From assembly GCA_963675665.1 (NCBI GenBank), contig OY776510.1, positions 2,240,001 to 2,304,000 of the forward strand: DNA of 64,000 bases, given 5' to 3'. Each line of letters opens with the position of its first letter. Within the stretch, counting starts at the first letter, position 1. The stretch is from Spirochaetia bacterium (lineage in GTDB: Bacteria > Spirochaetota > Spirochaetia > UBA9216). The notes below the pieces were generated by a model. That model saw only the letters and a program-made list of their open reading frames with translations, had not been told where the DNA came from and did no database searches. Below are positions 23,320 through 64,000 of this stretch, one piece after another. Both the position numbers and the translations under genes were made by a program.

Positions 23320-23415
23320 ATGAATAATATAGATCGAAACAGTGTTGAATATCAATTAAGGCGATTTCAGAACATGGAATGTTGCTATTTTAATTTTCTG
23401 CCCGTATAATAAGTA

Positions 23416-53512: not shown

Positions 53513-54607
53513 TCAGTGGTACCGGAGCTTAAGATTTTTCACCGTTTGTAGAAAATGCACAGCCCTGTTTTTTCTGTATGTGAATGAATCGATGTGCCTG
53601 GTCGTATAGGCAGGATCGTTTGTATCAACAAAGCTTCTGATGCAGTTTGCAGCAGCCATGGTTGAATCGATAAAGATGAAGTTGTCGTTGTTTGTTCTTC
53701 TGAACGGAAAATTGTCGATTGATTCAATAAAGCTTCCGACTGATTTTGCAATACGGTTTATATCGCCGTACATTCCCCATCCTGATCTTTCCAGCATAAT
53801 TGCGTTAAGCCTCTGTTCGAACTGCATTTTCTGGGGAAAGGCAAGAACAGGTTTCCCAAGGAACAGGGCTTCAGAAAGCATCTGGTGTCCGCTTGAACTG
53901 ATTACGCCTTTGCAGCCGGTCAGCGCTTCTGTGAAATTCTGTTTTTTATCGGGGAAGACCCTGAAGTCCGTATCGGGAAATTCTCTGATCGCCTCAAGGA
54001 CTGATTCACGCGATTCTTCCTTTGTATAAACGAGGTAATAATTGTCCCTGCGTGGTTTCCTGTTTTTTATATCCTTTCTGAGTATCGGACCTATGTCTCC
54101 GCCATAGAAGGAGCAGATAAGATCCTGTGTTCCCCGAGGCATCATAATCCTGGCGGCAAATTTGGCCGCCAGGGCATCGGGTTTTATCGAGAAATATCTG
54201 AGGACCACCCCCGGATGATTAAGGTTCAGCACGGGAAGATTCAGACTTTTTGCCGCCAGGGCCGTATAAGGCTCAAAATCGGAAACAAGGGCAGTAACCC
54301 CGAATTCCGACATAAGCGCGGAAAGCCTCCTGACTTCCGGTTGAATACGGCCTATCTTTGTGAGGTTTTTCAATAGTGTTTTTCTGTAACGGACAACATG
54401 ATTTTCCTTATGAAAATTTATTCCCGGAATTTCGATAATTTCAGTTTCAGGAAGACTTTCAGCAAGAAATCTTCTGATTGATTGGGGTGCAAAGATCATT
54501 ACTTCATAGTGCTCCTGCAATGCTTCAGTTAATGCAATGGTCCTTGCCGCATGTCCGCGGCCTTCTCCGGCAACGCCAAACGATATTAGTTTTTTTGTAT
54601 TGTTCAT
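53513..54607 (-). CDS. Glycosyltransferase, MJ1255/VC2487-like GT-B
   Basis: GEGRGHAAR, VSDFEP, SGHQMLSEA..LGKP...P...QFEQRLNA. Confidence 0.85.
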   Translation of the reverse strand: MNNTKKLISFGVAGEGRGHAARTIALTEALQEHYEVMIFAPQSIRRFLAESLPETEIIEIPGINFHKENHVVRYRKTLLKNLTKIGRIQPEVRRLSALMSEFGVTALVSDFEPYTALAAKSLNLPVLNLNHPGVVLRYFSIKPDALAAKFAARIMMPRGTQDLICSFYGGDIGPILRKDIKNRKPRRDNYYLVYTKEESRESVLEAIREFPDTDFRVFPDKKQNFTEALTGCKGVISSSGHQMLSEALFLGKPVLAFPQKMQFEQRLNAIMLERSGWGMYGDINRIAKSVGSFIESIDNFPFRRTNNDNFIFIDSTMAAANCIRSFVDTNDPAYTTRHIDSFTYRKNRAVHFLQTVKNLKLRYH

Positions 54608-54780
54608 TACAGAAAAACTAAAGCCTGAATATTTCTGCAGAGTTAATGTTAAGTTAGGAATCGGTTATTATTTGCGGGTGAATTGAGTCTTTTTAAAGGT
54701 TTTCTAATGTGTCTGTAATTCAGCTCACATATGCAGTTGATTTACTACCGGCAACAGGAATGAATTGTCGGGAGGGCATG

Positions 54781-56160
54781 ATGAAAAAGAAAATAGCTGT
54801 TTTCGGAACCGGTTATGTTGGGCTTGTTACCGCTGTGGGACTTGCCGAAATCGGGCATGATGTTACAGCAGTAGATATCGATACAAGCAGGGTAAAAGAA
54901 CTGAAAAAGGGATATCTGCCGTTTTATGAACCGGGACTGAAAGGTATGCTGAAAAAAAACCTTACTGTCGGTAAAATCCGGTTTACGACTGAAGGCGACG
55001 AAGCTGTTACAGGTAACAATATAATATTTATTGCCGTGGGTACCCCTTCAAAAGCGGACGGCAGGGTTGATCTTTCACAGGTTGATAAGGTTTTCGATGT
55101 TATAACGGAAAATCTTGATACAGCAAAGACTATAATCATCAAATCCACAATTCCTCCGGGAACTGTTAACAGCTACAGGGAGTTGTATTCAAGCGAGCTT
55201 CAAACAACATCAAGCGAAATTATATTTTGCCCTGAATTTCTGAGGGAGGGTACTGCAGTGCACGATTTCTTTCATCCCGACAGAATAGTCGTAGGCGCTG
55301 ATTCGGTTGAGGCATCAAGGACGGTCAATTCGATATTCTTTCCCATAATATCAAGGCTGGATGTGCCGGTACTGAGATGCAGGCCGGTTTCGGCTGAAAT
55401 GATTAAGTACGGAAGCAATGTTATGCTTGCCTCAAGAATAGCTGTGATGAATGAACTGGCCGAAATGTCCGAAGCGGCAGGCGGCGATATTAGAGAGGTT
55501 TCAGCAGGGGTGGGCATGGATAAAAGAATTGGAAAAGAATTCCTCAAGGCCGGTCCGGGGTTCGGCGGAAGCTGTTTCGGAAAAGATGTTGCCGGTATAG
55601 TCAGGACAGCGGAGTATTACGGTCTTGACCTGAGGTTGATAAGCGGGATTATCAAATCAAACGACAGGCAAAGAGTCAGGCCTGCACTGAGGCTTGAGAA
55701 AGCCCTCGGGTCTCTGAAGGGAAAGAAAATTGCCGTTCTCGGACTTGCTTTCAAGGCGGATACCGACGATGTTCGCGGGTCGGCAGCTTTTGATGTGATA
55801 AATTATCTTGTTGATAAAGGAGCGCAGGTAAAGGCCCATGATCCCCGGGCTGAATACAATTTTATCCGGCTTTTCAGGAAGAAGGGTTATACCTGTACTG
55901 ATAAGGCGGAAGACGCCCTGAAAGGCGCCTGGGCCTGTATTATCCTTACTGAATGGAAAGAATATAACGATTTAGGTCCGGAAATGTTCGGCTGCCTGAT
56001 GCGGGGAAGAATCATAATCGACGCAAGAAACATCCTTGACGGGGATGCTTTCAGATATGAAGGTTTCAGGGTATTCGGCTCAGGCCGCCCCGAAACTGTT
56101 CCTGCAGCAAGGACAATTATAAGAAGTGATTTTGTAAACGCAGCGATTGTATCGGTTTAA
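54781..56160 (+). CDS. ugd: UDP-glucose/GDP-mannose 6-dehydrogenase
   Basis: GTGYVGL, AVGTP, KSTIPPGT, PEFLREG, GFGGSCFGKD, GLAFKADTDD.R. Confidence 0.9.
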   Translation: MKKKIAVFGTGYVGLVTAVGLAEIGHDVTAVDIDTSRVKELKKGYLPFYEPGLKGMLKKNLTVGKIRFTTEGDEAVTGNNIIFIAVGTPSKADGRVDLSQVDKVFDVITENLDTAKTIIIKSTIPPGTVNSYRELYSSELQTTSSEIIFCPEFLREGTAVHDFFHPDRIVVGADSVEASRTVNSIFFPIISRLDVPVLRCRPVSAEMIKYGSNVMLASRIAVMNELAEMSEAAGGDIREVSAGVGMDKRIGKEFLKAGPGFGGSCFGKDVAGIVRTAEYYGLDLRLISGIIKSNDRQRVRPALRLEKALGSLKGKKIAVLGLAFKADTDDVRGSAAFDVINYLVDKGAQVKAHDPRAEYNFIRLFRKKGYTCTDKAEDALKGAWACIILTEWKEYNDLGPEMFGCLMRGRIIIDARNILDGDAFRYEGFRVFGSGRPETVPAARTIIRSDFVNAAIVSV

Positions 56161-56170
56161 TAAGAATGGT

Positions 56171-56205
56171 AGTTACGTAATAGATTTTGATTTATATACG
56201 TAACT
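56171..56205. terminator. Hairpin between convergent genes
   Basis: AGTTACGTA...TACGTAACT inverted repeat. Confidence 0.55.
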
Positions 56206-56220
56206 GTCTTCTTCAGTTTT

Positions 56221-57222
56221 TTACATTTTGCCGTAATTATTTCTATATAAAGGAGATTTTTTCTCGATAAGTTTTGTGATGAGCCTACTGAAAATTCGGA
56301 TTGCCGGTAAAATCGGACGCAGTTTTTTTACAAGGATCTCCTGCCAGTTCCGTATGGAATGCTGCTGGTAATCAAGTAACGACTGCACTTCAGCTGTGTC
56401 GTACCAGTCAAGGTAATAAGAGTCCGGATCCTGTGAATAAAGGGCCGGATTGGGTGTTTTAAGAAAAAGCGGATGAAACATCGCTTCTGCAAAATCCTCA
56501 GTATGCATACGGCAGCCGTTCTGTTCTCCGCCGGCAATAAAACCTTTTTTACCGCAGATTTCCCCGCTGCCCCGGAGGTTCTCACACGCAGCAACCAGTG
56601 CAATTGCTACATCAAGATCAACTACGGCTTCGCAGCGGGCATTAACCGGTATTTCAAACAGGAGTTCCGTCATGTTCAGTACGGCTTTCAGGTTAAGTAC
56701 CGTAGGAAGAACTGCCGCAGGTCTGAGAATGCAGTAGTCAAGCCCTGATGATTGGATAACTTCTTCAGCTTCAGCCTTGCTGACTGAATAGTTGTCGGTA
56801 GGCGACAGTTTGTCATCTGGGCTGACCGGCGGCTTTCGGTTTTGCGTAGACCCCATCACGCTTGCCGAAGAAACAAAGACAATCCCCGTTTTACCGCCCG
56901 ACTGTTTTAGCGCTTTTACAAGGTTTTCAGTACCGCCAAGGTTAACGGCCCTGCACAGTTCAGGCAGTCTGTCGCTTGCGGGAGGCAGAATCGACGCCAT
57001 ATGAATAACGGCATCCTGGTTTGCTGTGGCGGCGGAAATATCGTCATATTTTCTTATGTCGCCGAAAATGACTTTTACGCCTTTTCTTGCATATTTACGG
57101 GCAAGTCTGAAGGTGCGGTCGGTTCTTACTTCAAATACGGAAACACTGTGGCCGCGTTTCAGGCATTCTTCAATTACAACTACTCCTATACTGCCGAATC
57201 CGCCTGTTATCAGGATTTTCAT
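56221..57222 (-). CDS. NAD-dependent epimerase/dehydratase (extended SDR)
   Basis: ITGGFGSIG, HMAS, SSAS, YSVSK; start likely ATG 57222. Confidence 0.9.
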   Translation of the reverse strand: MKILITGGFGSIGVVVIEECLKRGHSVSVFEVRTDRTFRLARKYARKGVKVIFGDIRKYDDISAATANQDAVIHMASILPPASDRLPELCRAVNLGGTENLVKALKQSGGKTGIVFVSSASVMGSTQNRKPPVSPDDKLSPTDNYSVSKAEAEEVIQSSGLDYCILRPAAVLPTVLNLKAVLNMTELLFEIPVNARCEAVVDLDVAIALVAACENLRGSGEICGKKGFIAGGEQNGCRMHTEDFAEAMFHPLFLKTPNPALYSQDPDSYYLDWYDTAEVQSLLDYQQHSIRNWQEILVKKLRPILPAIRIFSRLITKLIEKKSPLYRNNYGKM

Positions 57223-57278
57223 GGTAGGGCCTCTTTTTATCATTATACTTCATTAAAGGCGGTTTTGAGAAATTTTAT

Positions 57279-57326
57279 GGCCGCGAATTACACGAATGTG
57301 TATCGGGTAAGGGCAGGAAGAGATTG
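57279..57326 (+). repeat. Degenerate repeat copy 1 (upstream of WYL gene)
   Basis: GGCCGCGAATTACACGAAT-GTGTATCGGGTAAGGG...GAGATTG, related to copies at 58566 and 59164. Confidence 0.65.
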
Positions 57327-57474
57327 GAAGAGGGGGTATCGATACCATATTCTGGTTTTTAATAAGTATGAGTAAAAGTGTAATTTGTAATTTTTATGGA
57401 TCGGGCATATAATGATTTTTAGGCCCAATAATAAAATTATAGTTTCTGTATTTTTAAAAATGGTTTGGTTTGGA

Positions 57475-58497
57475 ATGAAAAGGGCTTATGCAAAATCAGA
57501 GAGATTAAACAAAATCCAGCTCTTATTGTCGTCAATTGAACGGGGCATTACACGAAGTGAATTGGCGAGAAGGCTTAATGTAAGCAGAGCCACAATATCC
57601 CGTGATATAGCAGAACTCAGTCATGATTATCCTGTGATTGAGGATGAAGAAACCGGAAAACTTTATGCCGATAAAATTTCTCTTTTGGCTAATCTTCATT
57701 TTAATGCAGAAGAAATTCAGGCTATGCACCTTGCCTGCAGACTTCTTGGCCGGAAAGTGCGATTTAAGTACCCTTCAGCTTCTTCTGCACTAAGGAAGCT
57801 TGGAATCGCTCTGGAACATTATGCTTCTCCGCTTGCTTCTTCAATTACTTCGACTGCTGAATTATTCGAAAACCATGAACCGGAAAAACAGACAGAACCG
57901 GCAGTTATGGTAAAAACAATAACTGAAGGTATAGTCCGGGGTCTTTCAATCCGTTTTGAGAGATACTCAAGAAGAGAGAAGATCTGGAAGGATTGTTTAT
58001 TCAATTCTTATTGCATTGAACCGTATGCCGAGGGGAATTCGCTTTATCTTGTGGGTTTTGATGAATGCTCTTCAGAACTAAGAACCATTAAATTTGAATT
58101 GATAAGAAATATTATACTTACTGACAGGTCTTATAGTATTCCGTCTGATTTTAATGCAAACGAATATTTTAAAAACAGCTGGGGTATCTGGACTTCATTA
58201 TGTGAAAGCCAAAGGGTTGTTTTAATGTTTTCAGCGGCTGTAAAGCAGCGGGTGCTTCAGACGGAATGGCACTATAGCGAAGAGATTGAGAAGCTTCAGG
58301 ACGGCAGAATAAAATGGACCGCTCTAATTGCCGAACCTGTTGAGATGCTTCCTTGGATTAGAGGTTGGGGTGCTGATGTGGAGGTAATAGAGCCAGAAGG
58401 TTTAAAACAGATGATTATTGATGATATCAGGGCTTGTTCAGATTGTTATGGGTTACGGATGTTAAGTGATAATGATGAAAAAAAACAGAATTTATAA
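57475..58497 (+). CDS. HTH-WYL-WCX transcriptional regulator
   Basis: ELARRLNVSRATISRDI HTH, YLVG, RTIKFELI, WGIW, WIRGWGADVEVIEP. Confidence 0.9.
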   Translation: MKRAYAKSERLNKIQLLLSSIERGITRSELARRLNVSRATISRDIAELSHDYPVIEDEETGKLYADKISLLANLHFNAEEIQAMHLACRLLGRKVRFKYPSASSALRKLGIALEHYASPLASSITSTAELFENHEPEKQTEPAVMVKTITEGIVRGLSIRFERYSRREKIWKDCLFNSYCIEPYAEGNSLYLVGFDECSSELRTIKFELIRNIILTDRSYSIPSDFNANEYFKNSWGIWTSLCESQRVVLMFSAAVKQRVLQTEWHYSEEIEKLQDGRIKWTALIAEPVEMLPWIRGWGADVEVIEPEGLKQMIIDDIRACSDCYGLRMLSDNDEKKQNL

Positions 58498-58565
58498 GTT
58501 TACCCTGTCAGCAGTTTCATTAGGTGAAACGGGTCGTGAGTAAAATAAAATGGAGGTGTTGAGTC

Positions 58566-58593
58566 GGCCGCGGATTAAGAGGATTTTCACGGA
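58566..58593 (+). repeat. Degenerate repeat copy 2
   Basis: GGCCGCGGATTAAGAGGATTTTCACGGA. Confidence 0.75.
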
Positions 58594-58665
58594 AAGGGAA
58601 AAAGGCTGATACATATGATTAATAGTTTTTATACGATGTTTTTCCTTCAGTTTTTCATTTTACAA

Positions 58666-58740
58666 TCCGTCTTTAGCCTGTCAAGGGCCGGGCAAGTTAA
58701 ACGGCTGTGCCGTTTAACCCTTGACCGGCTAAAGAGCGGA
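58666..58740. other. Long bulged hairpin upstream of GxxExxY gene
   Basis: TCCG-TCTTTAGCC-T-GTCAAGG pairs with CCTTGAC-C-GGCTAAAGA-G-CGGA; inner GTTAAACGGC-TGT-GCCGTTTAAC. Confidence 0.8.
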
Positions 58741-58776
58741 GTCTGTATGTTCTGAAAAATTTCAGGAGGTACAGTT

Positions 58777-59139
58777 ATGGTACATGAAGAGTTAAGTTAT
58801 AAAATTATCGGCTGTTGTATGGAGGTTCACAGTGGTCTTGGAGCCGGTTTATTGGAACAGTGTTATCACAATGCATTGTTTTATGAAATAAAAACGGCCG
58901 GGTTGCAGGTTGGGTACAATGTTCCTTTTACGGTGAAATACCGGGGTGAGGTGGTCGGAGAATATTTTGCTGATCTGGTTGTTGAGGGCAAGGTAATTAT
59001 TGAGCTTAAGTCGGTAAAAAGGCTTGGTGATGAGCATGCGGCGCAGGTTATCAACTATCTGCGTATTTCAGGCTGTCGTCTGGGGCTGCTGGTTAATTTT
59101 CAGGGCTCAAGCCTTGAGTGGAAACGGCTGGTTGTATAG
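58777..59139 (+). CDS. GxxExxY protein (PD-(D/E)XK-like)
   Basis: GLLEQCY, ADLVVE, IELKS, AQVINYL, GLLVNF; AGGAGG RBS. Confidence 0.93.
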   Translation: MVHEELSYKIIGCCMEVHSGLGAGLLEQCYHNALFYEIKTAGLQVGYNVPFTVKYRGEVVGEYFADLVVEGKVIIELKSVKRLGDEHAAQVINYLRISGCRLGLLVNFQGSSLEWKRLVV

Positions 59140-59163
59140 GGCGTTTTCTGGCCGGGTTTGTTG

Positions 59164-59221
59164 GGCCACGGATTTGGAGGATTAGCACGGATGTATAGGG
59201 TTAAGGGTGGGGGGGAGATTG
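59164..59221 (+). repeat. Degenerate repeat copy 3 (between GxxExxY and cas3)
   Basis: GGCCACGGATTTGGAGGATTAGCACGGAT-GTATAGGGTTAAGGG...GAGATTG; 23/28 identical to copy 2. Confidence 0.75.
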
Positions 59222-59244
59222 TGATAAAGATCTGGAGGTTGTAG

Positions 59245-61557
59245 ATGAATGAGATTAAATTTTATGCACATTCTACAAAAATGGGTGATAAATCTGATTG
59301 GCAATTACTTGAAACTCATCTTTCTGAAGTTGCTCAGTTAACAGAAAAATTCTCTGAGAGTTTTGGAGTCGGAGAGTGTGGTCGAATCGCTGGTCTTCTT
59401 CACGATTTAGGTAAATACACAAAGTCATTTCAGGGATATCTGGAACGCAGTCAGCGAGGCGAAACTGTAAAACGTGGTGAAGTTATTCATGCTTTACAGG
59501 GAGCAAAGTATGCAGAACAAATAATTTGCGATAATGTACTTTCGGATATAATTGGTAATGTCATCGCGTCTCATCATGGAGGCTTGTTTGACAATATTTT
59601 TGATGGGGAGAGGACGTTATCAGTAAAGACAGATAAAGGTGAAGATAGTTTACATTATGCAGAAGTTATAAATCACTTCAGTCCTGAAATTAATGAAATA
59701 AAAGTGAAAGAGGAAATCCTTAACTTTTGTAAAACAATTCAACGAAGAGGGTTAAAAAGTCCTTCTTTTATGCTCCATTTTATAACAAAAGCAATTTATT
59801 CGTGTGTTGTGGATGCAGATAGATCTAACAGTGCGGGGATAGAAGTCAGCGATGCAATTCCAAATTGGGAAAAGTCAATTCAACAATTAGAAACTTATCT
59901 TGAAGCTTTTTTAGCGATAAATGATATCGATAAAATTCGTACACAAATATCAGAGCAGTGCCAAACAGCTGGCAGAAAACCGCAGGGAATTTATACTTTA
60001 TCCGTTCCGACAGGCGGCGGGAAAACATTATCTAGCATGCGTTTTGCTTTAGAACATGTTAATGCACATAACCTTAAAAGAATAATCTATGTTATTCCTT
60101 ATTTATCTATTCTTGATCAAACTGCAGAGAAATTACATGAAGTTTTTTCTGATGAAAGAGATGACTTAATTCTTGAGCATCATTCAAACATCGAACCACC
60201 TGAAGATGATAATGAAGAAGACGAATACCGTTTACTAACTTCAAGGTGGGATAGTCCAATTATTTTAACTACAATGGTTCAGTTTTTAGAGACAATATAC
60301 AGTAATAAATCTTCAAAGCTTCGTAAATTCCATAATATGTCAGATTCGGTTTTAATCTTTGATGAGATACAGGCCTTGCCGATAAAATGTATCCATCTTT
60401 TTAACGATGCAATTAATTTCCTGCAAGTAGCCGGCGGATCAACAATCTTACTTTGTACAGCGACTCAGCCCCATCTCCATATGGTGGACCGTCCGGTGCT
60501 GTTGGCTGAGAACCCGGATATCGTAAATATTACAGCGGAAGAGTTAAGCGTTTTCGAGAGAGTTCATATCAAAGACATTACTCAAAAGGTAATGGATTAC
60601 GAAGAAATAACCGAACTTGTTCGTACTCAAATTGAACAGGAAAAGAGTACCCTTGTAATTATGAACACGAAAAGGGATTCCCTCGCTTTATATGAACAAT
60701 GTAGGTCTATTGATTGTGAAAGAGCATTGTTGACGACTGATCTTTGCCCAGCCCATCGTTTGGAAGTACTTAGACTGTTACGTAATAATCTGGCCCCTGA
60801 ATCAAAGCAAGTAATATTATGCATAAGTACACAACTGATTGAGGCCGGTGTAGATGTGTCGTTTGATTGTGTCATTCGTGCAGAAGCGGGTATGGACAGT
60901 ATTATTCAGGCAGCCGGGCGTTGTAATCGAAATAAAGAAAATTCAATACCTCAGTCGGTATTTGTTGTTGATGTTCAGGGGGAAAAGCTTTCCCGGCTTC
61001 CAGAAATAAAGGAAGCAAAAAGTGTAACAAAAACAGTATTCCACGAAAAGCAGGGAGCTGATTTACTAAGTCCTGATGTTGTGAATTTATTCTATAAGTA
61101 TCATTTCTATGATCAGAAAAATAGAATGGATTATGACACTAAGGATGGTAAAACAACCGTCTATAATTTATTAAATATTAATAGCTTAGGAATGGGCGCA
61201 TACAAGGATCGAAATAGTGAAAAACAATACAACGGGTTGCCTTGTGCTTTTAAAACTGCTGCAGAAGAATTTTCTGTAATTGGGGGAGGTCAAATCGGTA
61301 TTGTTGTTCCTTATGGTGATGCTATGGATCTTGTAGATGATTTTATACAAAGTTTTAAACCTAAAAATAAAATACGCATTCTTAAGCAGTTGCAGAAATA
61401 TACGGTTTCTGTCTATTCGAATAAATTAGAAAAACTTATACAAGAGCGTGCAATCAGGCCTATAGAAGATTCTTTCTATCTTTTAGATTCAGAATATTAT
61501 GATTCTGAGGAGAAGGGATTATTAATAAATTCAAAATTTTCCTTTTTGTATGTATAG
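59245..61557 (+). CDS. cas3: CRISPR-associated helicase/nuclease Cas3 (type I-C)
   Basis: YAHS, HDLGK, HH, DAD HD domain; VPTGGGKT, DEIQ, TATQP, STQLIEAGVD, QAAGRCNR. Confidence 0.97.
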   Translation: MNEIKFYAHSTKMGDKSDWQLLETHLSEVAQLTEKFSESFGVGECGRIAGLLHDLGKYTKSFQGYLERSQRGETVKRGEVIHALQGAKYAEQIICDNVLSDIIGNVIASHHGGLFDNIFDGERTLSVKTDKGEDSLHYAEVINHFSPEINEIKVKEEILNFCKTIQRRGLKSPSFMLHFITKAIYSCVVDADRSNSAGIEVSDAIPNWEKSIQQLETYLEAFLAINDIDKIRTQISEQCQTAGRKPQGIYTLSVPTGGGKTLSSMRFALEHVNAHNLKRIIYVIPYLSILDQTAEKLHEVFSDERDDLILEHHSNIEPPEDDNEEDEYRLLTSRWDSPIILTTMVQFLETIYSNKSSKLRKFHNMSDSVLIFDEIQALPIKCIHLFNDAINFLQVAGGSTILLCTATQPHLHMVDRPVLLAENPDIVNITAEELSVFERVHIKDITQKVMDYEEITELVRTQIEQEKSTLVIMNTKRDSLALYEQCRSIDCERALLTTDLCPAHRLEVLRLLRNNLAPESKQVILCISTQLIEAGVDVSFDCVIRAEAGMDSIIQAAGRCNRNKENSIPQSVFVVDVQGEKLSRLPEIKEAKSVTKTVFHEKQGADLLSPDVVNLFYKYHFYDQKNRMDYDTKDGKTTVYNLLNINSLGMGAYKDRNSEKQYNGLPCAFKTAAEEFSVIGGGQIGIVVPYGDAMDLVDDFIQSFKPKNKIRILKQLQKYTVSVYSNKLEKLIQERAIRPIEDSFYLLDSEYYDSEEKGLLINSKFSFLYV

Positions 61558-61566
61558 AGGTGAAAT

Positions 61567-62305
61567 ATGGATAAAAAATGGAATTCGGTGGAGTTTAAGA
61601 TCACGGGACGATACGCAATGTTTGCCGACCCAGTCACGCGGGTAGGCGGTGAAAAGTTTTCATATCAGGTTCCAACTTATCAGGCACTTAAAGGTATTTT
61701 GGAAAGTGTGTATTGGAAGCCGACTTTTATCTGGTATATCGATAAAGTTCGTATAATGAAAAAAAATACAAACCGAGTCAAAAGGCATTAAGCCAATTAA
61801 AATGAGCGGTGGTAATGATCTCTCGTATTACACTTATTTACGTGATGTGGAATATAAGGTCATGGCCCATTTTGATTGGAATTATAAACATAAAAACTTA
61901 GATAATGATCGCGACGAAAATAAGCACCACAACATCGCTAAACGTAGCATAAAAAAAGGAGGAAGGCGTGACATTTTCCTTGGGTCACGGGAATGCCAGG
62001 GGTATGTTGAACCCTGTGTTTTGGGAGGAGAGAAGGGTTTTTACGATAACTATGGAGAATTGGATTTCGGTGTAATGTTTCATGGATACGATTATCCTGA
62101 TGAGACTGGGAATGATGAGCTTGTTGTCCGTTTATGGAGGGCAAAGATGAAAGACGGACTAATTGAGTTTCCTATGCCGAAGAATTGTGATCCTGCCATG
62201 AAACGTTTTATACGCAAAATGACTGCAAAAGAATTTGAGAATAAGCGTAACTTTTCACTAATCGATGAAGATCCTTCTATAGCGGATACATTATTGGAGG
62301 TATAG
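61567..62305 (+). pseudogene. cas5: Type I-C Cas5c split by a frameshift in an A8 tract
   Basis: [26 protein letters not shown] in frame 1; YLRDVEY, GGRRDIFLGSREC in frame 2; removing one A at 61759-61766 restores [13 protein letters not shown]. Confidence 0.88.
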
Positions 62306-62306
62306 A

Positions 62307-64000
62307 ATGGGATTCTGGCAAAACTTAGCAGATAGTTACGATAAAAATGTTGATATTTTAGGAAAACTCTATCCTCTCTCGACAACCTCAATTTCCAATA
62401 ACAGTGACATGATTGTCATCATTGTTATTGATGGAGATGGCAATTTTGTCCGTTTCGATAAAATTGAGAAAATATCTAATCAAACCAAAAAAGGTCATGG
62501 AAATCCTCTCGTCAATATCACGATTCCGGTTACTGAAGAGAGTATGGGACGATCAAGCGGTATTTCGCCACATCCTGTTTTTGATCAATTCGGATATTTA
62601 AGAGGAGATGGCGATAAATTCAAAGCTTACATCGAACAGTTTAAAGGATTTGCCACATCTAAATTCGCAACAAAACAGGTAATGACCATCTTTCAGTATG
62701 CTGAAAAGGGAAATATTGCTCTTAATTTATCAGAAATCGGAATGAAAGAAAAAACAAACATCCTCTTTCAAGTAGAAATATCGGGGCAATCACAATCTAA
62801 AGTTTGGGAAGACGAAACGTTTTTTAATGCCTGGCATCAATATTATCTGGATGTAAAGGACAAACGGGCTGAAGCGAAAAAAACAGGTGAATATAGACTG
62901 GCAAGCAAAACAAAATTATCTTCAGAGGAAAAGGAACAAAAGAAAGAACTGGGAAAAATAAAAGATGTAATATCTTTGGACTATATTACAGGTTACGGGA
63001 AACAGCCGATTGCTACTTTTCACCCTAAAAAAATTTCCAATGCCTCTGCAAATTCAAAACTTGTATCGGATAACGATACAGCGAATTATACATTTCGAGG
63101 TAAATTCGAAGACTCCCTGCAAGCGGTATCCATTGGGTACGAGACCTCCCAGAAAGCCCATCAGTTTCTACGTTATCTTATTAATGATCGGGGATACTAT
63201 TGCGGCGAACAAGTGCTTTTATCTTTTACCATTGGTTCCAATGAAAAGCTGTTAGCTCCACCAATCAATAATGATAGTATAACATCTTTTTTGAAAGAAG
63301 CTATAACCCTAACGGACAAAGACAGGGAAATCGAACTTCATGCTGAAACAGGGATTGATTACGCAAAGATATTAAAAAAGGCACTTGATGGTTTTAAATA
63401 CAATAAAAAGTTAGAGCATGCAAAAACAGCGGTAATAGCTTTAGATGCGGCTACGACCGGGCGATTATCCATTACCTTTTATCGTGAATTGGATCGAAAT
63501 GAATATCTTGAAAGAATATTAGACTGGCATGAAGGCTGTAAATGGAATCAAAAATTCTGGGATAAAGAGGAAGGACGATACGTTCCTTATACAGGAGCCC
63601 CATCCGTTGATACGATTATTGAAGCCGTCTATGGAAAACCTCGTGGGGGTAAAGATGAGAGCTATACTAAAATAAAAAAGGCTGCCAGAGAGCGTATTTT
63701 ACGTTGCATTTTTGATGGCTCTCCTTTACCTCTGGATTATGTAGTAACAGCATCACGGCGGGCATCAAATCCATTGGGAATTACAAGTAGAAGTAAATTT
63801 GATCGAAATAGTTTTTTACAAGTCGTTTCAACGGCATGTGCACTAATAAGAAAGAATAATATACAACAAAAAAAGGAGGAATATAAATTGAGTATTGAGC
63901 ATGATAGAACTGACCGCGATTACCTGTACGGCAGATTGTTGGGCGCTGCAGACAAATTGGAGGAATATGCCTTAAATAAACAGGGAAATGATCGATTAGT
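62307..64000 (+). CDS. cas8c: Type I-C Cas8c/Csd1 (3'-truncated by window end)
   Basis: Hand translation of the frame from ATG 62307 gives RSSGISPHP.FD, KLVS.ND..NYTFRG, SQKAH, LDAATTGRLSITFYRE, and DYLYGRLL near the window end; absent from ORF track, presumably because it has no stop in the window. Confidence 0.93.
   Translation, partial: MGFWQNLADSYDKNVDILGKLYPLSTTSISNNSDMIVIIVIDGDGNFVRFDKIEKISNQTKKGHGNPLVNITIPVTEESMGRSSGISPHPVFDQFGYLRGDGDKFKAYIEQFKGFATSKFATKQVMTIFQYAEKGNIALNLSEIGMKEKTNILFQVEISGQSQSKVWEDETFFNAWHQYYLDVKDKRAEAKKTGEYRLASKTKLSSEEKEQKKELGKIKDVISLDYITGYGKQPIATFHPKKISNASANSKLVSDNDTANYTFRGKFEDSLQAVSIGYETSQKAHQFLRYLINDRGYYCGEQVLLSFTIGSNEKLLAPPINNDSITSFLKEAITLTDKDREIELHAETGIDYAKILKKALDGFKYNKKLEHAKTAVIALDAATTGRLSITFYRELDRNEYLERILDWHEGCKWNQKFWDKEEGRYVPYTGAPSVDTIIEAVYGKPRGGKDESYTKIKKAARERILRCIFDGSPLPLDYVVTASRRASNPLGITSRSKFDRNSFLQVVSTACALIRKNNIQQKKEEYKLSIEHDRTDRDYLYGRLLGAADKLEEYALNKQGNDRL

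Follow-up and report, generated by a model that had tools for sequence, protein, structure and literature searches.

Upstream of cas3 in a 64,000-base stretch of the genome of a Spirochaetia bacterium (contig OY776510.1, positions 2,240,001 to 2,304,000; the whole stretch is called the window here), three short, degenerate direct repeats punctuate the genes for a WYL-type regulator and a small nuclease of the GxxExxY family. What are these repeats, and how did the nuclease gene come to lie between a regulator and the Cas genes of a CRISPR (clustered regularly interspaced short palindromic repeats) locus? An earlier note on this DNA had offered a recombination or mobility site, a protein-binding site or an RNA signal; that interpretation is partly supported, with the first of the three the most probable. 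The three short repeats themselves are confirmed as real and, in the best reading of the data, they mark where the nuclease gene entered between the CRISPR regulator gene and cas3. The host genome is available as a single contig of 5.15 Mb that is 96% complete.

Three repeat units around a nuclease gene

From left to right, the junction is composed as follows (all on the + strand).

57278..57332, +, copy 1 of the unit, in its long form, with the start motif, a phased pair of CGAAT words and a GTATCGGGTAAGGG...GAGATTG tail
57412..58497, +, gene for a helix-turn-helix (HTH)-WYL-WCX regulator, likely start ATG 57475, between copies 1 and 2
58564..58605, +, copy 2 of the unit, in its short form, with the start motif, GGATT and CACGGAA words 9–10 nucleotides (nt) apart and a purine run; 5' end of the GxxExxY cassette
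58606..58650, +, AT-rich centre, then a short tract of pyrimidines with which the purine run of copy 2 pairs in the minimum-energy fold only
58651..58776, +, conserved structured leader: anti-Shine-Dalgarno stretch, long hairpin, AGGAGG, start codon
58777..59139, +, GxxExxY / PDDEXK_3 gene (PF13366, TIGR04256), 120 amino acids, catalytic D66, E76 and K78 intact
59162..59232, +, copy 3 of the unit, in its long form plus an additional block of words, with GGAT three times in phase and a GTATAGGGTTAAGGG...GAGATTG tail; 3' cassette boundary
59245..61557, +, cas3 of a type I-C locus, after copy 3

The start motif GGCCRCGRAT was found on scanning both strands of the window at exactly the positions reported earlier, 57279, 58566 and 59164, all on the + strand, and nowhere else. 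In 100 dinucleotide shuffles of the window, scanned in the same way, the motif occurred 0.46 times on average and at most twice, three matches being reached in none. The phasing described for the words that follow is borne out by their positions: G[GA]AT recurs at 57285 and 57294 in copy 1 (spacing 9), at 58572 and 58581 in copy 2 (spacing 9, with CACGGAA next at 58588), and at 59170, 59179 and 59189 in copy 3 (spacings 9 and 10). Copies 2 and 3 agree at 23 of 28 ungapped positions, the same count as before; none of 500 shuffles of the two intergenic regions, the number used for each pairwise comparison of units, scored as high, and a repeat search lengthens the pair to 43 nt at 72%. Copies 1 and 2 are not significantly similar when compared alone (score reached by 125 of 500 shuffles). 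Copies 1 and 3 do share the tail attributed to them, CACG.ATGT..TA..GGGT.AAGGG, in an alignment that is itself marginal (35 of 500).

Seven units taken from four other genomes, none of them the host, were combined into a profile, which was searched against the whole 5.15-Mb genome. Because this outside profile ranks copy 1 second genome-wide (E 0.0021), we regard copy 1 as a true unit despite its weak pairwise scores; copies 2 and 3 were missed by the same search at E ≤ 20. A chance likeness of three short GC-rich strings would fit the comparison of copies 1 and 2, which alone stays inside the shuffle range, but it is contradicted by the triple start motif, by the score of copies 2 and 3 and by the genome-wide recovery of copy 1, and we find it scarcely credible.

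The top match of the profile (E 3.3e-5) lies beyond the end of the window.

Genome 2316670–2316723 (would be window 76670–76723; outside the window): copy 4, the twin of copy 1

Copies 1 and 4 are identical at 49 of 55 positions, copy 4 being the closest relative of copy 1, and are separated by 19.4 kb, with copy 4 beyond the CRISPR array. The interval opens with the genes for WYL, GxxExxY, cas3, cas5, cas8c and cas7, continues with inserted Bro-N and AAA_14/DUF4143 genes, and closes with cas4, cas1, cas2, an array of about 79 repeats and a metallophosphatase gene. Copy 1 thus pairs with copy 4 and copies 2 and 3 pair around GxxExxY, so that the units form two nested pairs and not three equal delimiters. 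The earlier picture of one gene between successive copies is right as to layout, WYL followed by GxxExxY, and wrong in treating the copies as equivalent. Its placing of copy 1 at the island edge is correct: a divergent epimerase gene, with which the polysaccharide-type genes end ahead of the CRISPR block, has its start codon 35 nt from this unit.

The junction that the cassette occupies is informative. The WYL protein corresponds to positions 1–322 of the PADLOC Cas3c profile PDLC01766 (E 2.4e-86) and Cas3 to positions 326–1002 of the same profile (E 1.8e-167). Longer proteins that match WYL at E ≤ 1e-20 number 440, and most of the 120 listed are about 1,070–1,270 residues long and carry Cas3 Pfam domains. 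Judged from such sequences, the WYL|cas3 junction would normally be continuous, as in WYL-Cas3 fusions. In the window the gap between the two genes is 747 bp and is filled exactly by copy 2, the leader, GxxExxY and copy 3. One GxxExxY cassette, with copies 2 and 3 as its two ends, lies between the WYL regulator and cas3.

Related genomes vary at the same boundaries. In G002, one of the six genomes that make up the genus (G003 and G004 are others), the order is WYL (59% identity), unit, GxxExxY, unit, and then type I-F cas1 and cas2-3; in G003 it is unit, GxxExxY, WYL (75% identity), and then type I-E cas3/cse1/cse2. The alignment of host and G002 DNA extends through copy 2, the 3' half of the leader and the gene as far as the first word of copy 3, where it ends; copy 2 is strongly conserved with its positional counterpart and the neighbouring spacer is not. 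A contig of 21,365 nt from a sequencing run of a related organism (X4) matches 54065–59140 with 280 differences (about 94.5% identity) and is unlike the window for its final 434 nt, the break falling at the GxxExxY stop codon. Gene order therefore breaks at repeat boundaries, as had been proposed: at the WYL|cas3 junction, at 59140 in the 94.5% relative, and in the different cas subtypes of the sister species. Orthologous WYL regulators (window 57412–58497; L048 5042–6064; L049 2162–3154; 59–75%) head I-C, I-E and I-F operons in three species.

A repeat family tied to GxxExxY genes

The product of the gene between copies 2 and 3 matches PF13366 with E 7.6e-40 and 136.4 bits (cut-off 22) and TIGR04256 with 144 bits (cut-off 35). 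In 26 sequences E27, Y30 and K78 are invariant, and G24, D66 and E76 are conserved in at least 90%. The predicted model, with a predicted local-distance difference test score (pLDDT) of 95.2, has a core like those of Cas4, lambda exonuclease and Hjc; as modelled, the protein has a plain nuclease fold and not a recombinase fold. No relative of solved structure was found for it by sequence search, and it matched no PADLOC or PHROGs family. Its function is entered as 'Unknown' in the relevant part of a survey naming the family (PMC3424549). No description of a GxxExxY-linked repeat family was found in the literature (full text, supplements aside).

The hairpin of the leader has arms at 58670–58687 and 58718–58735, with an invariant TCAAGG/CCTTGA and a z-score of −3.53 for the window sequence. 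An alignment of 17 leaders of about 125 nt, from the window and 16 other loci, contains compensatory changes at 8 of 12 consensus pairs; no Rfam family matched the leader. Within it, on the − strand at 58684–58657, lies the best promoter-like match of the region, TTGACA-16-TAAAAT (11 of 12 consensus positions), which faces copy 2 and points away from the GxxExxY gene. Both hexamers coincide with conserved positions in the aligned leaders, so this site is a candidate for an antisense promoter that the cassette may bring with it.

The host genome has eight PF13366 loci, and all eight have the word CC[AG]C[GT]GAT within 1.5 kb. Of 678 such words in the genome, 13 lie within 500 nt of the eight genes, against 1.38 expected (binomial P 2.7e-9; the word was picked after inspection of the data, and one of the 13 falls inside an open reading frame), and all 13 are on the strand of the gene. 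In five other genomes, at least eight GGCCRCGRAT matches lie less than 500 nt from a PF13366 match where about 0.2–0.3 would be expected, among the 150 matches listed of 164 and tallied by hand; these eight comprise two in G003, three in G004, three in G008 and none in G009 or G010. At 25 related loci, same-strand words have a density of 1.01 per kb up to 500 nt away and of 0.18 per kb beyond, and 16 of the loci have such a word. The enrichment near GxxExxY genes, on which the earlier note had staked its proposal, is thus found in the host and elsewhere.

Among the 80 best metagenomic relatives of GxxExxY, 69 have both flanks, and significant flank-to-flank similarity is present in 63 of these (58 inverted, 26 direct). 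The same flank test on 57 viral GxxExxY loci, a rough control, gave 9, which shows that distant viral homologues are mostly without repeats. The long-form unit pattern, searched across genome contigs, was found at five loci, one of them a true unit (L061) and four of them chance matches in coding sequence of other phyla. We conclude that the three units are members of a dispersed, little-known repeat family tied to GxxExxY genes.

Descent from the repeats of a CRISPR array, as a mini-array or a repeat-like regulatory RNA beside the cas operon, is suggested by the position of the units next to cas3 and by GTGGATTG in the 3' part of the array repeat, which by inspection only is loosely like the CACGGATT word. 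The wider distribution of the family contradicts it: units recur in restriction-modification and other non-CRISPR settings in the host genome and in L061, and repeats flank GxxExxY in the 63 metagenomic loci. Moreover, the units lack the GC hairpin of the array repeat (again by inspection only), and the region has no Rfam CRISPR repeat match; no Rfam family of any kind was found at E ≤ 1 in 55000–64000. We consider such a descent very improbable.

Three further candidates were set aside. A Chi-like hotspot was rejected on the genome-wide frequency of CACGGAT, which is not over-represented (375 observed, 333 expected). CsrA sites, which carry GGA motifs, were dropped by inspection, copies 1 and 4 having GAAT words, and a Xer/dif module was likewise dropped for want of a dyad.

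A role in cis or in RNA deserves fuller discussion. The phased words might bind WYL, GxxExxY or a host factor, or the units might be signals for RNA processing, translation coupling or insulation that let the cassette sit harmlessly inside an operon. Phasing of 9–10 nt places the words on one face of the helix, the units are co-oriented with transcription, and copies 1 and 3, which share a tail, precede the regulator gene and cas3, respectively. The cas3 ribosome-binding site, GGAGG, comes directly after copy 3, and in L061 the tail of one unit resembles a ribosome-binding site and stops 6 nt before the ATG of the next gene. The conservation of copy 2 but not of its surrounding spacer in G002 points the same way, as does the capacity of its purine run, in the minimum-energy fold only, to pair with the pyrimidine tract that would otherwise mask the GxxExxY ribosome-binding site. 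The family nevertheless tracks GxxExxY, at eight of eight loci, rather than WYL, of which the genome has a single gene of this type; neither WYL nor cas genes accompany copy 4 and many other units; word types (GGAT, GAAT, TGAT) differ even inside single units; and the distance from a unit to the next start codon ranges from 6 to more than 140 nt. On balance we think a regulatory or RNA-level role unlikely to be what the units are for.

Possible joints between gene blocks, and the surrounding genes

We consider it probable, if only modestly so, that the units are joints at which blocks of DNA were inserted, duplicated or swapped by recombination between one unit and another. Pairs of units enclose gene blocks elsewhere in the host genome. 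A pair identical at 54 of 58 positions surrounds a GNAT and cupin gene pair beside a GxxExxY cassette. A direct duplication of 618 nt (93.7%; genome 8923–9537 and 29141–29756; L016 and L010), comprising the 3' end of a 1113-residue gene, its downstream hairpins and a unit, ends exactly at the end of the unit; its two copies enclose a 20.2-kb defence island with genes of cyclic-oligonucleotide-based antiphage signalling (CBASS) type, QueC, toxin–antitoxin and type I restriction genes and four copies of GxxExxY. In L061, a type I restriction operon is split by three co-oriented units, of which the two that flank GxxExxY agree at 46 of 48 positions. For 9 of 17 units, a set of our own selection, the best partner lies less than 25 kb away, against a null mean of 3.6 (P 0.0016).

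In such recombination, a unit on incoming DNA would recombine with a chromosomal unit and the outcome would be one unit on either side of the incoming block, the divergence of 6–11% inside pairs then representing differences between donor and recipient. The window cassette would read, in order, unit, AT-rich centre, structured leader, gene, unit, and copies 1 and 4 would bracket the whole 19.4-kb block from WYL to the CRISPR array and phosphatase. Recombination may have been of a short-homology kind, RecA-type or similar; cuts by the GxxExxY nuclease at the phased words may have triggered or favoured it, and circular intermediates may have been involved. We propose nuclease-stimulated recombination at short homologies because no recombinase gene lies in the block or next to it and because the sole constant companion of the units is a nuclease with intact catalytic residues.

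The form of the units bears on how they arrived. The window copies are lone arms: relative to shuffles, their fold z-scores are −0.23 for copy 1, +1.94 for copy 2 and +1.70 for copy 3, that is, no better than shuffles or worse. No inverted partner and no imperfect palindrome of the attC type was found inside the window units, and the GxxExxY flanks give a direct score of 31, reached by 1 of 500 shuffles, and an inverted score of 16, reached by 478. Copy 2 is followed by the AT-rich centre and a short pyrimidine tract and so seems to be a hairpin element minus its far end; to judge from its composition, this segment looks like a degenerate element of purine arm, AT centre and pyrimidine arm. 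In same-genus genomes the GxxExxY leader is preceded by a complete hairpin some 120 nt long, bounded on the outside by the unit start and by the inverse of that start (z −3.6 in L023 and −5.7 in L038, matched by none of 200 shuffles each). In L068, the closest metagenomic relative, a whole hairpin element stands on either side of GxxExxY in direct orientation; the window copies resemble its arms weakly (score reached by 15–21 of 500 shuffles with copies 1 and 2 and by about 100 with copy 3). The host genome itself has an inverted pair of units at 2656305/2656939.

Some of these observations speak for the main rival of recombination joints, namely that the units are independent, decayed and half-eroded gene-less insertions of a selfish hairpin element at tolerant junctions of defence islands. 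The units would then have had no role in moving their neighbours, the single gene between copies would be incidental, and the likeness of neighbouring units would be due to later conversion. The complete hairpins with inverted ends in L023 and L038, the inverted host pair, the lone arms of the window with copies 2 and 3 folding worse than shuffles, the excess of inverted over direct flanks in the metagenomes (58 versus 26 of 69) and the want of significant similarity between copies 1 and 2 would all follow. Random independent insertion would not, however, predict that all 13 near-gene words run with their genes, nor does it sit well with reciprocal-best pairs that bracket blocks far above random pairing, with a 618-nt duplication that terminates exactly at a unit end, or with similarity to the close relative and to G002 that ends at the start of copy 3. 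We regard decayed insertion as somewhat unlikely. No target-site duplication was identified at the units.

Several points weigh against recombination between units. The 22 open reading frames scanned between 52018 and the far side of copy 4, which take in the block and its neighbours, include none for a recombinase, integrase or transposase, and the predicted GxxExxY fold is that of a nuclease and not of a recombinase. Any insertion event must be old, since copies 2 and 3 are only 72–82% alike and copies 1 and 4 89%. Neighbouring units that were inserted independently could have become alike afterwards through gene conversion or local duplication, and the 17 units of the partner-distance test were selected by us. 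The X4 contig stops 434 nt past its break, which limits what it shows beyond. An empty site was not found: the left and right flanks of the block have only partial matches of 67–73%, in two and one, respectively, of five same-genus genomes. Of the 11 genomes in the order, only 3 contain relatives of WYL. The WYL gene, moreover, has no flanking units in G002 and G003; the idea of one-gene cassettes is supported for GxxExxY, bounded by copies 2 and 3, and not for WYL.

Three negative results stand beside these. No conserved junction was found at the block flanks among the five same-genus genomes, and a single-protein search found no WYL relatives in metagenome contigs. Among the joints listed for the sequencing-run contigs, in which rare excision products would not be visible, none fell at a unit, except that copy 4 aligned trivially with copy 1 in a source-like contig (X1). 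Of the other run contigs, X3 is fragmentary and identical, and X7 gave scraps only.

Should the units prove to be recombination joints, they would explain how whole systems are swapped in defence islands without a dedicated recombinase, and they would provide short, portable sequences with which to test that idea. GxxExxY (TIGR04256/PF13366) is a widespread orphan family, to which a constant partnership with repeats gives a testable role. Within one genus, the same regulator-plus-cassette block fronts three CRISPR–Cas subtypes, and in the host genome unit pairs enclose defence blocks of 19–20 kb. A bolder and distinctly improbable extension is that GxxExxY and units with word arrays form a recombinase-free, integron-like exchange system, in which cuts at the words and short-homology repair would move whole gene modules, from single toxin–antitoxin pairs up to an entire CRISPR–Cas locus behind a conserved WYL, with the units as the assembly joints of defence islands.

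Other forms of the repeats were seen. In G004 unit-type repeats have amplified into direct tandem arrays (L209 8515–9171 and 114–514; L208 641–1988 and 2048–2950), which also speaks for the units as joints; one array has 7.4 copies of an 88-nt unit and another 5.5 of a 245-nt unit. Overall, the repeat lengths are 88–90 nt, in 7.4 and 4.5 copies, and 245–336 nt, in about 2–5.5 copies, and the 245–336-nt arrays encircle a GxxExxY gene. Host units at 23343, 2630097 and 2656305 (L010, L013 and L012; 2.6 Mb apart) share a downstream segment of about 70 nt, GGGTAACACGG...TTAATCC..TAGTCT, which at two of the three lies ahead of a GxxExxY leader. The cassette counterpart in G002 has two similar inserts of about 46–60 nt (L049 ~1530–1590 and ~1960–2030), of which the leader hairpin holds one and the GxxExxY gene the other; from their sequence they look like a second small repeat element.

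Two further features lie between copy 1 and the WYL gene.

57335–57346, perfect 12-nt palindrome GGTATCGATACC, between copy 1 and the WYL promoter-like site; candidate operator
57385..57413, +, TTGTAA-17-TATAAT, a promoter-like site that follows copy 1 and precedes the WYL gene; 10 of 12 consensus positions only

On the other side of cas3, cas5d is split into two open reading frames in different frames, 61567–61791 and 61802–62305 (Pfam Cas_Cas5d positions 2–70 and 96–216), and this frameshift means that the type I-C system may be impaired; a source-like contig is identical to the window across the split. The Bro-N and AAA_14/DUF4143 ATPase genes between cas7 and cas4 (L009 1160–3402; genome 2305160–2307402) are further insertions in the cas locus.

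Comparison with known systems

The closest parallel in organisation is that of repetitive extragenic palindromes and their hairpin doublets with REP-associated tyrosine transposases (REP/REPIN-RAYT). There, as here, short dispersed repeats are tied to one small gene that they flank, gene-less copies occur at gene junctions and, in relatives, hairpin forms are found. The partner gene differs, being a PD-(D/E)XK nuclease here and a Y1 HUH transposase there; the 96%-complete host genome has no Y1_Tnp gene (PF01797, 0 matches), whereas control genomes do match. The copy number also differs, about 17 against tens to hundreds, and the window copies are lone direct arms that form no stable hairpin.

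Integrons and their attC sites resemble the window in that co-oriented genes are parted by one repeat each, the same repeat stands on both sides of an inserted block, and the cargo between repeats is unrelated (a toxin–antitoxin pair, GNAT and cupin genes, a regulator). The units are not, however, imperfect palindromes; they are spread over several loci rather than gathered in one array, and they also bracket blocks of 19–20 kb. No IntI-type recombinase or attI was found near the block, the search for IntI having covered the 22 open reading frames that run from 52018 to past copy 4.

Free-standing homing endonuclease genes, such as seg and mob of T4-type phages, offer a third comparison. The likeness lies in a small nuclease gene that is wedged between functionally linked genes, co-oriented with them and patchy among close relatives; spread by double-strand-break repair would, in addition, copy flanking DNA. 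To our knowledge, GxxExxY is not a recognised homing-endonuclease family, and we know of no homing genes that carry arrays of phased words or have 50-nt direct repeats on either side.

Miniature inverted-repeat transposable elements (MITEs) and extragenic palindromes (Correia/NEMIS, ERIC, BOX, RUP) are short non-coding repeats at gene junctions, some with terminal inverted repeats, that can affect the expression of neighbours. The units are likewise short, non-coding and at gene junctions. They differ in that the inverted ends seen at 2656305/2656939 and in L023 and L038 are absent from the three window copies, and in that the gene of the gene-carrying form is not a transposase. The window units have no mirrored arms that form a hairpin or bracket a gene; what they do have is phased 7-nt words of the CACGGAT type, 9–10 nt apart, beside GxxExxY.

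Finally, the Coxiella burnetii 23S rRNA intervening sequence (IVS) is described, in the part of the account that bears on it, as a compact selfish insert with one small open reading frame and complementary ends, tolerated through its removal at the RNA level (PMC4990558). The cassette is similarly compact and has a single small reading frame; it does not lie in rRNA, and its product is GxxExxY, where the same passages give the four-helix protein S23p (PMC4990558). Because the ends in the window are direct and not complementary, unlike those of the IVS, no RNase III stem can form between them. Overall, the defining features of REPIN-RAYT systems, integrons and recognised homing families are lacking here; judged by analogy, the arrangement appears to work most like a repeat-plus-gene partnership of the REPIN-RAYT kind or a free-standing homing nuclease gene, in a layout that is integron-like.

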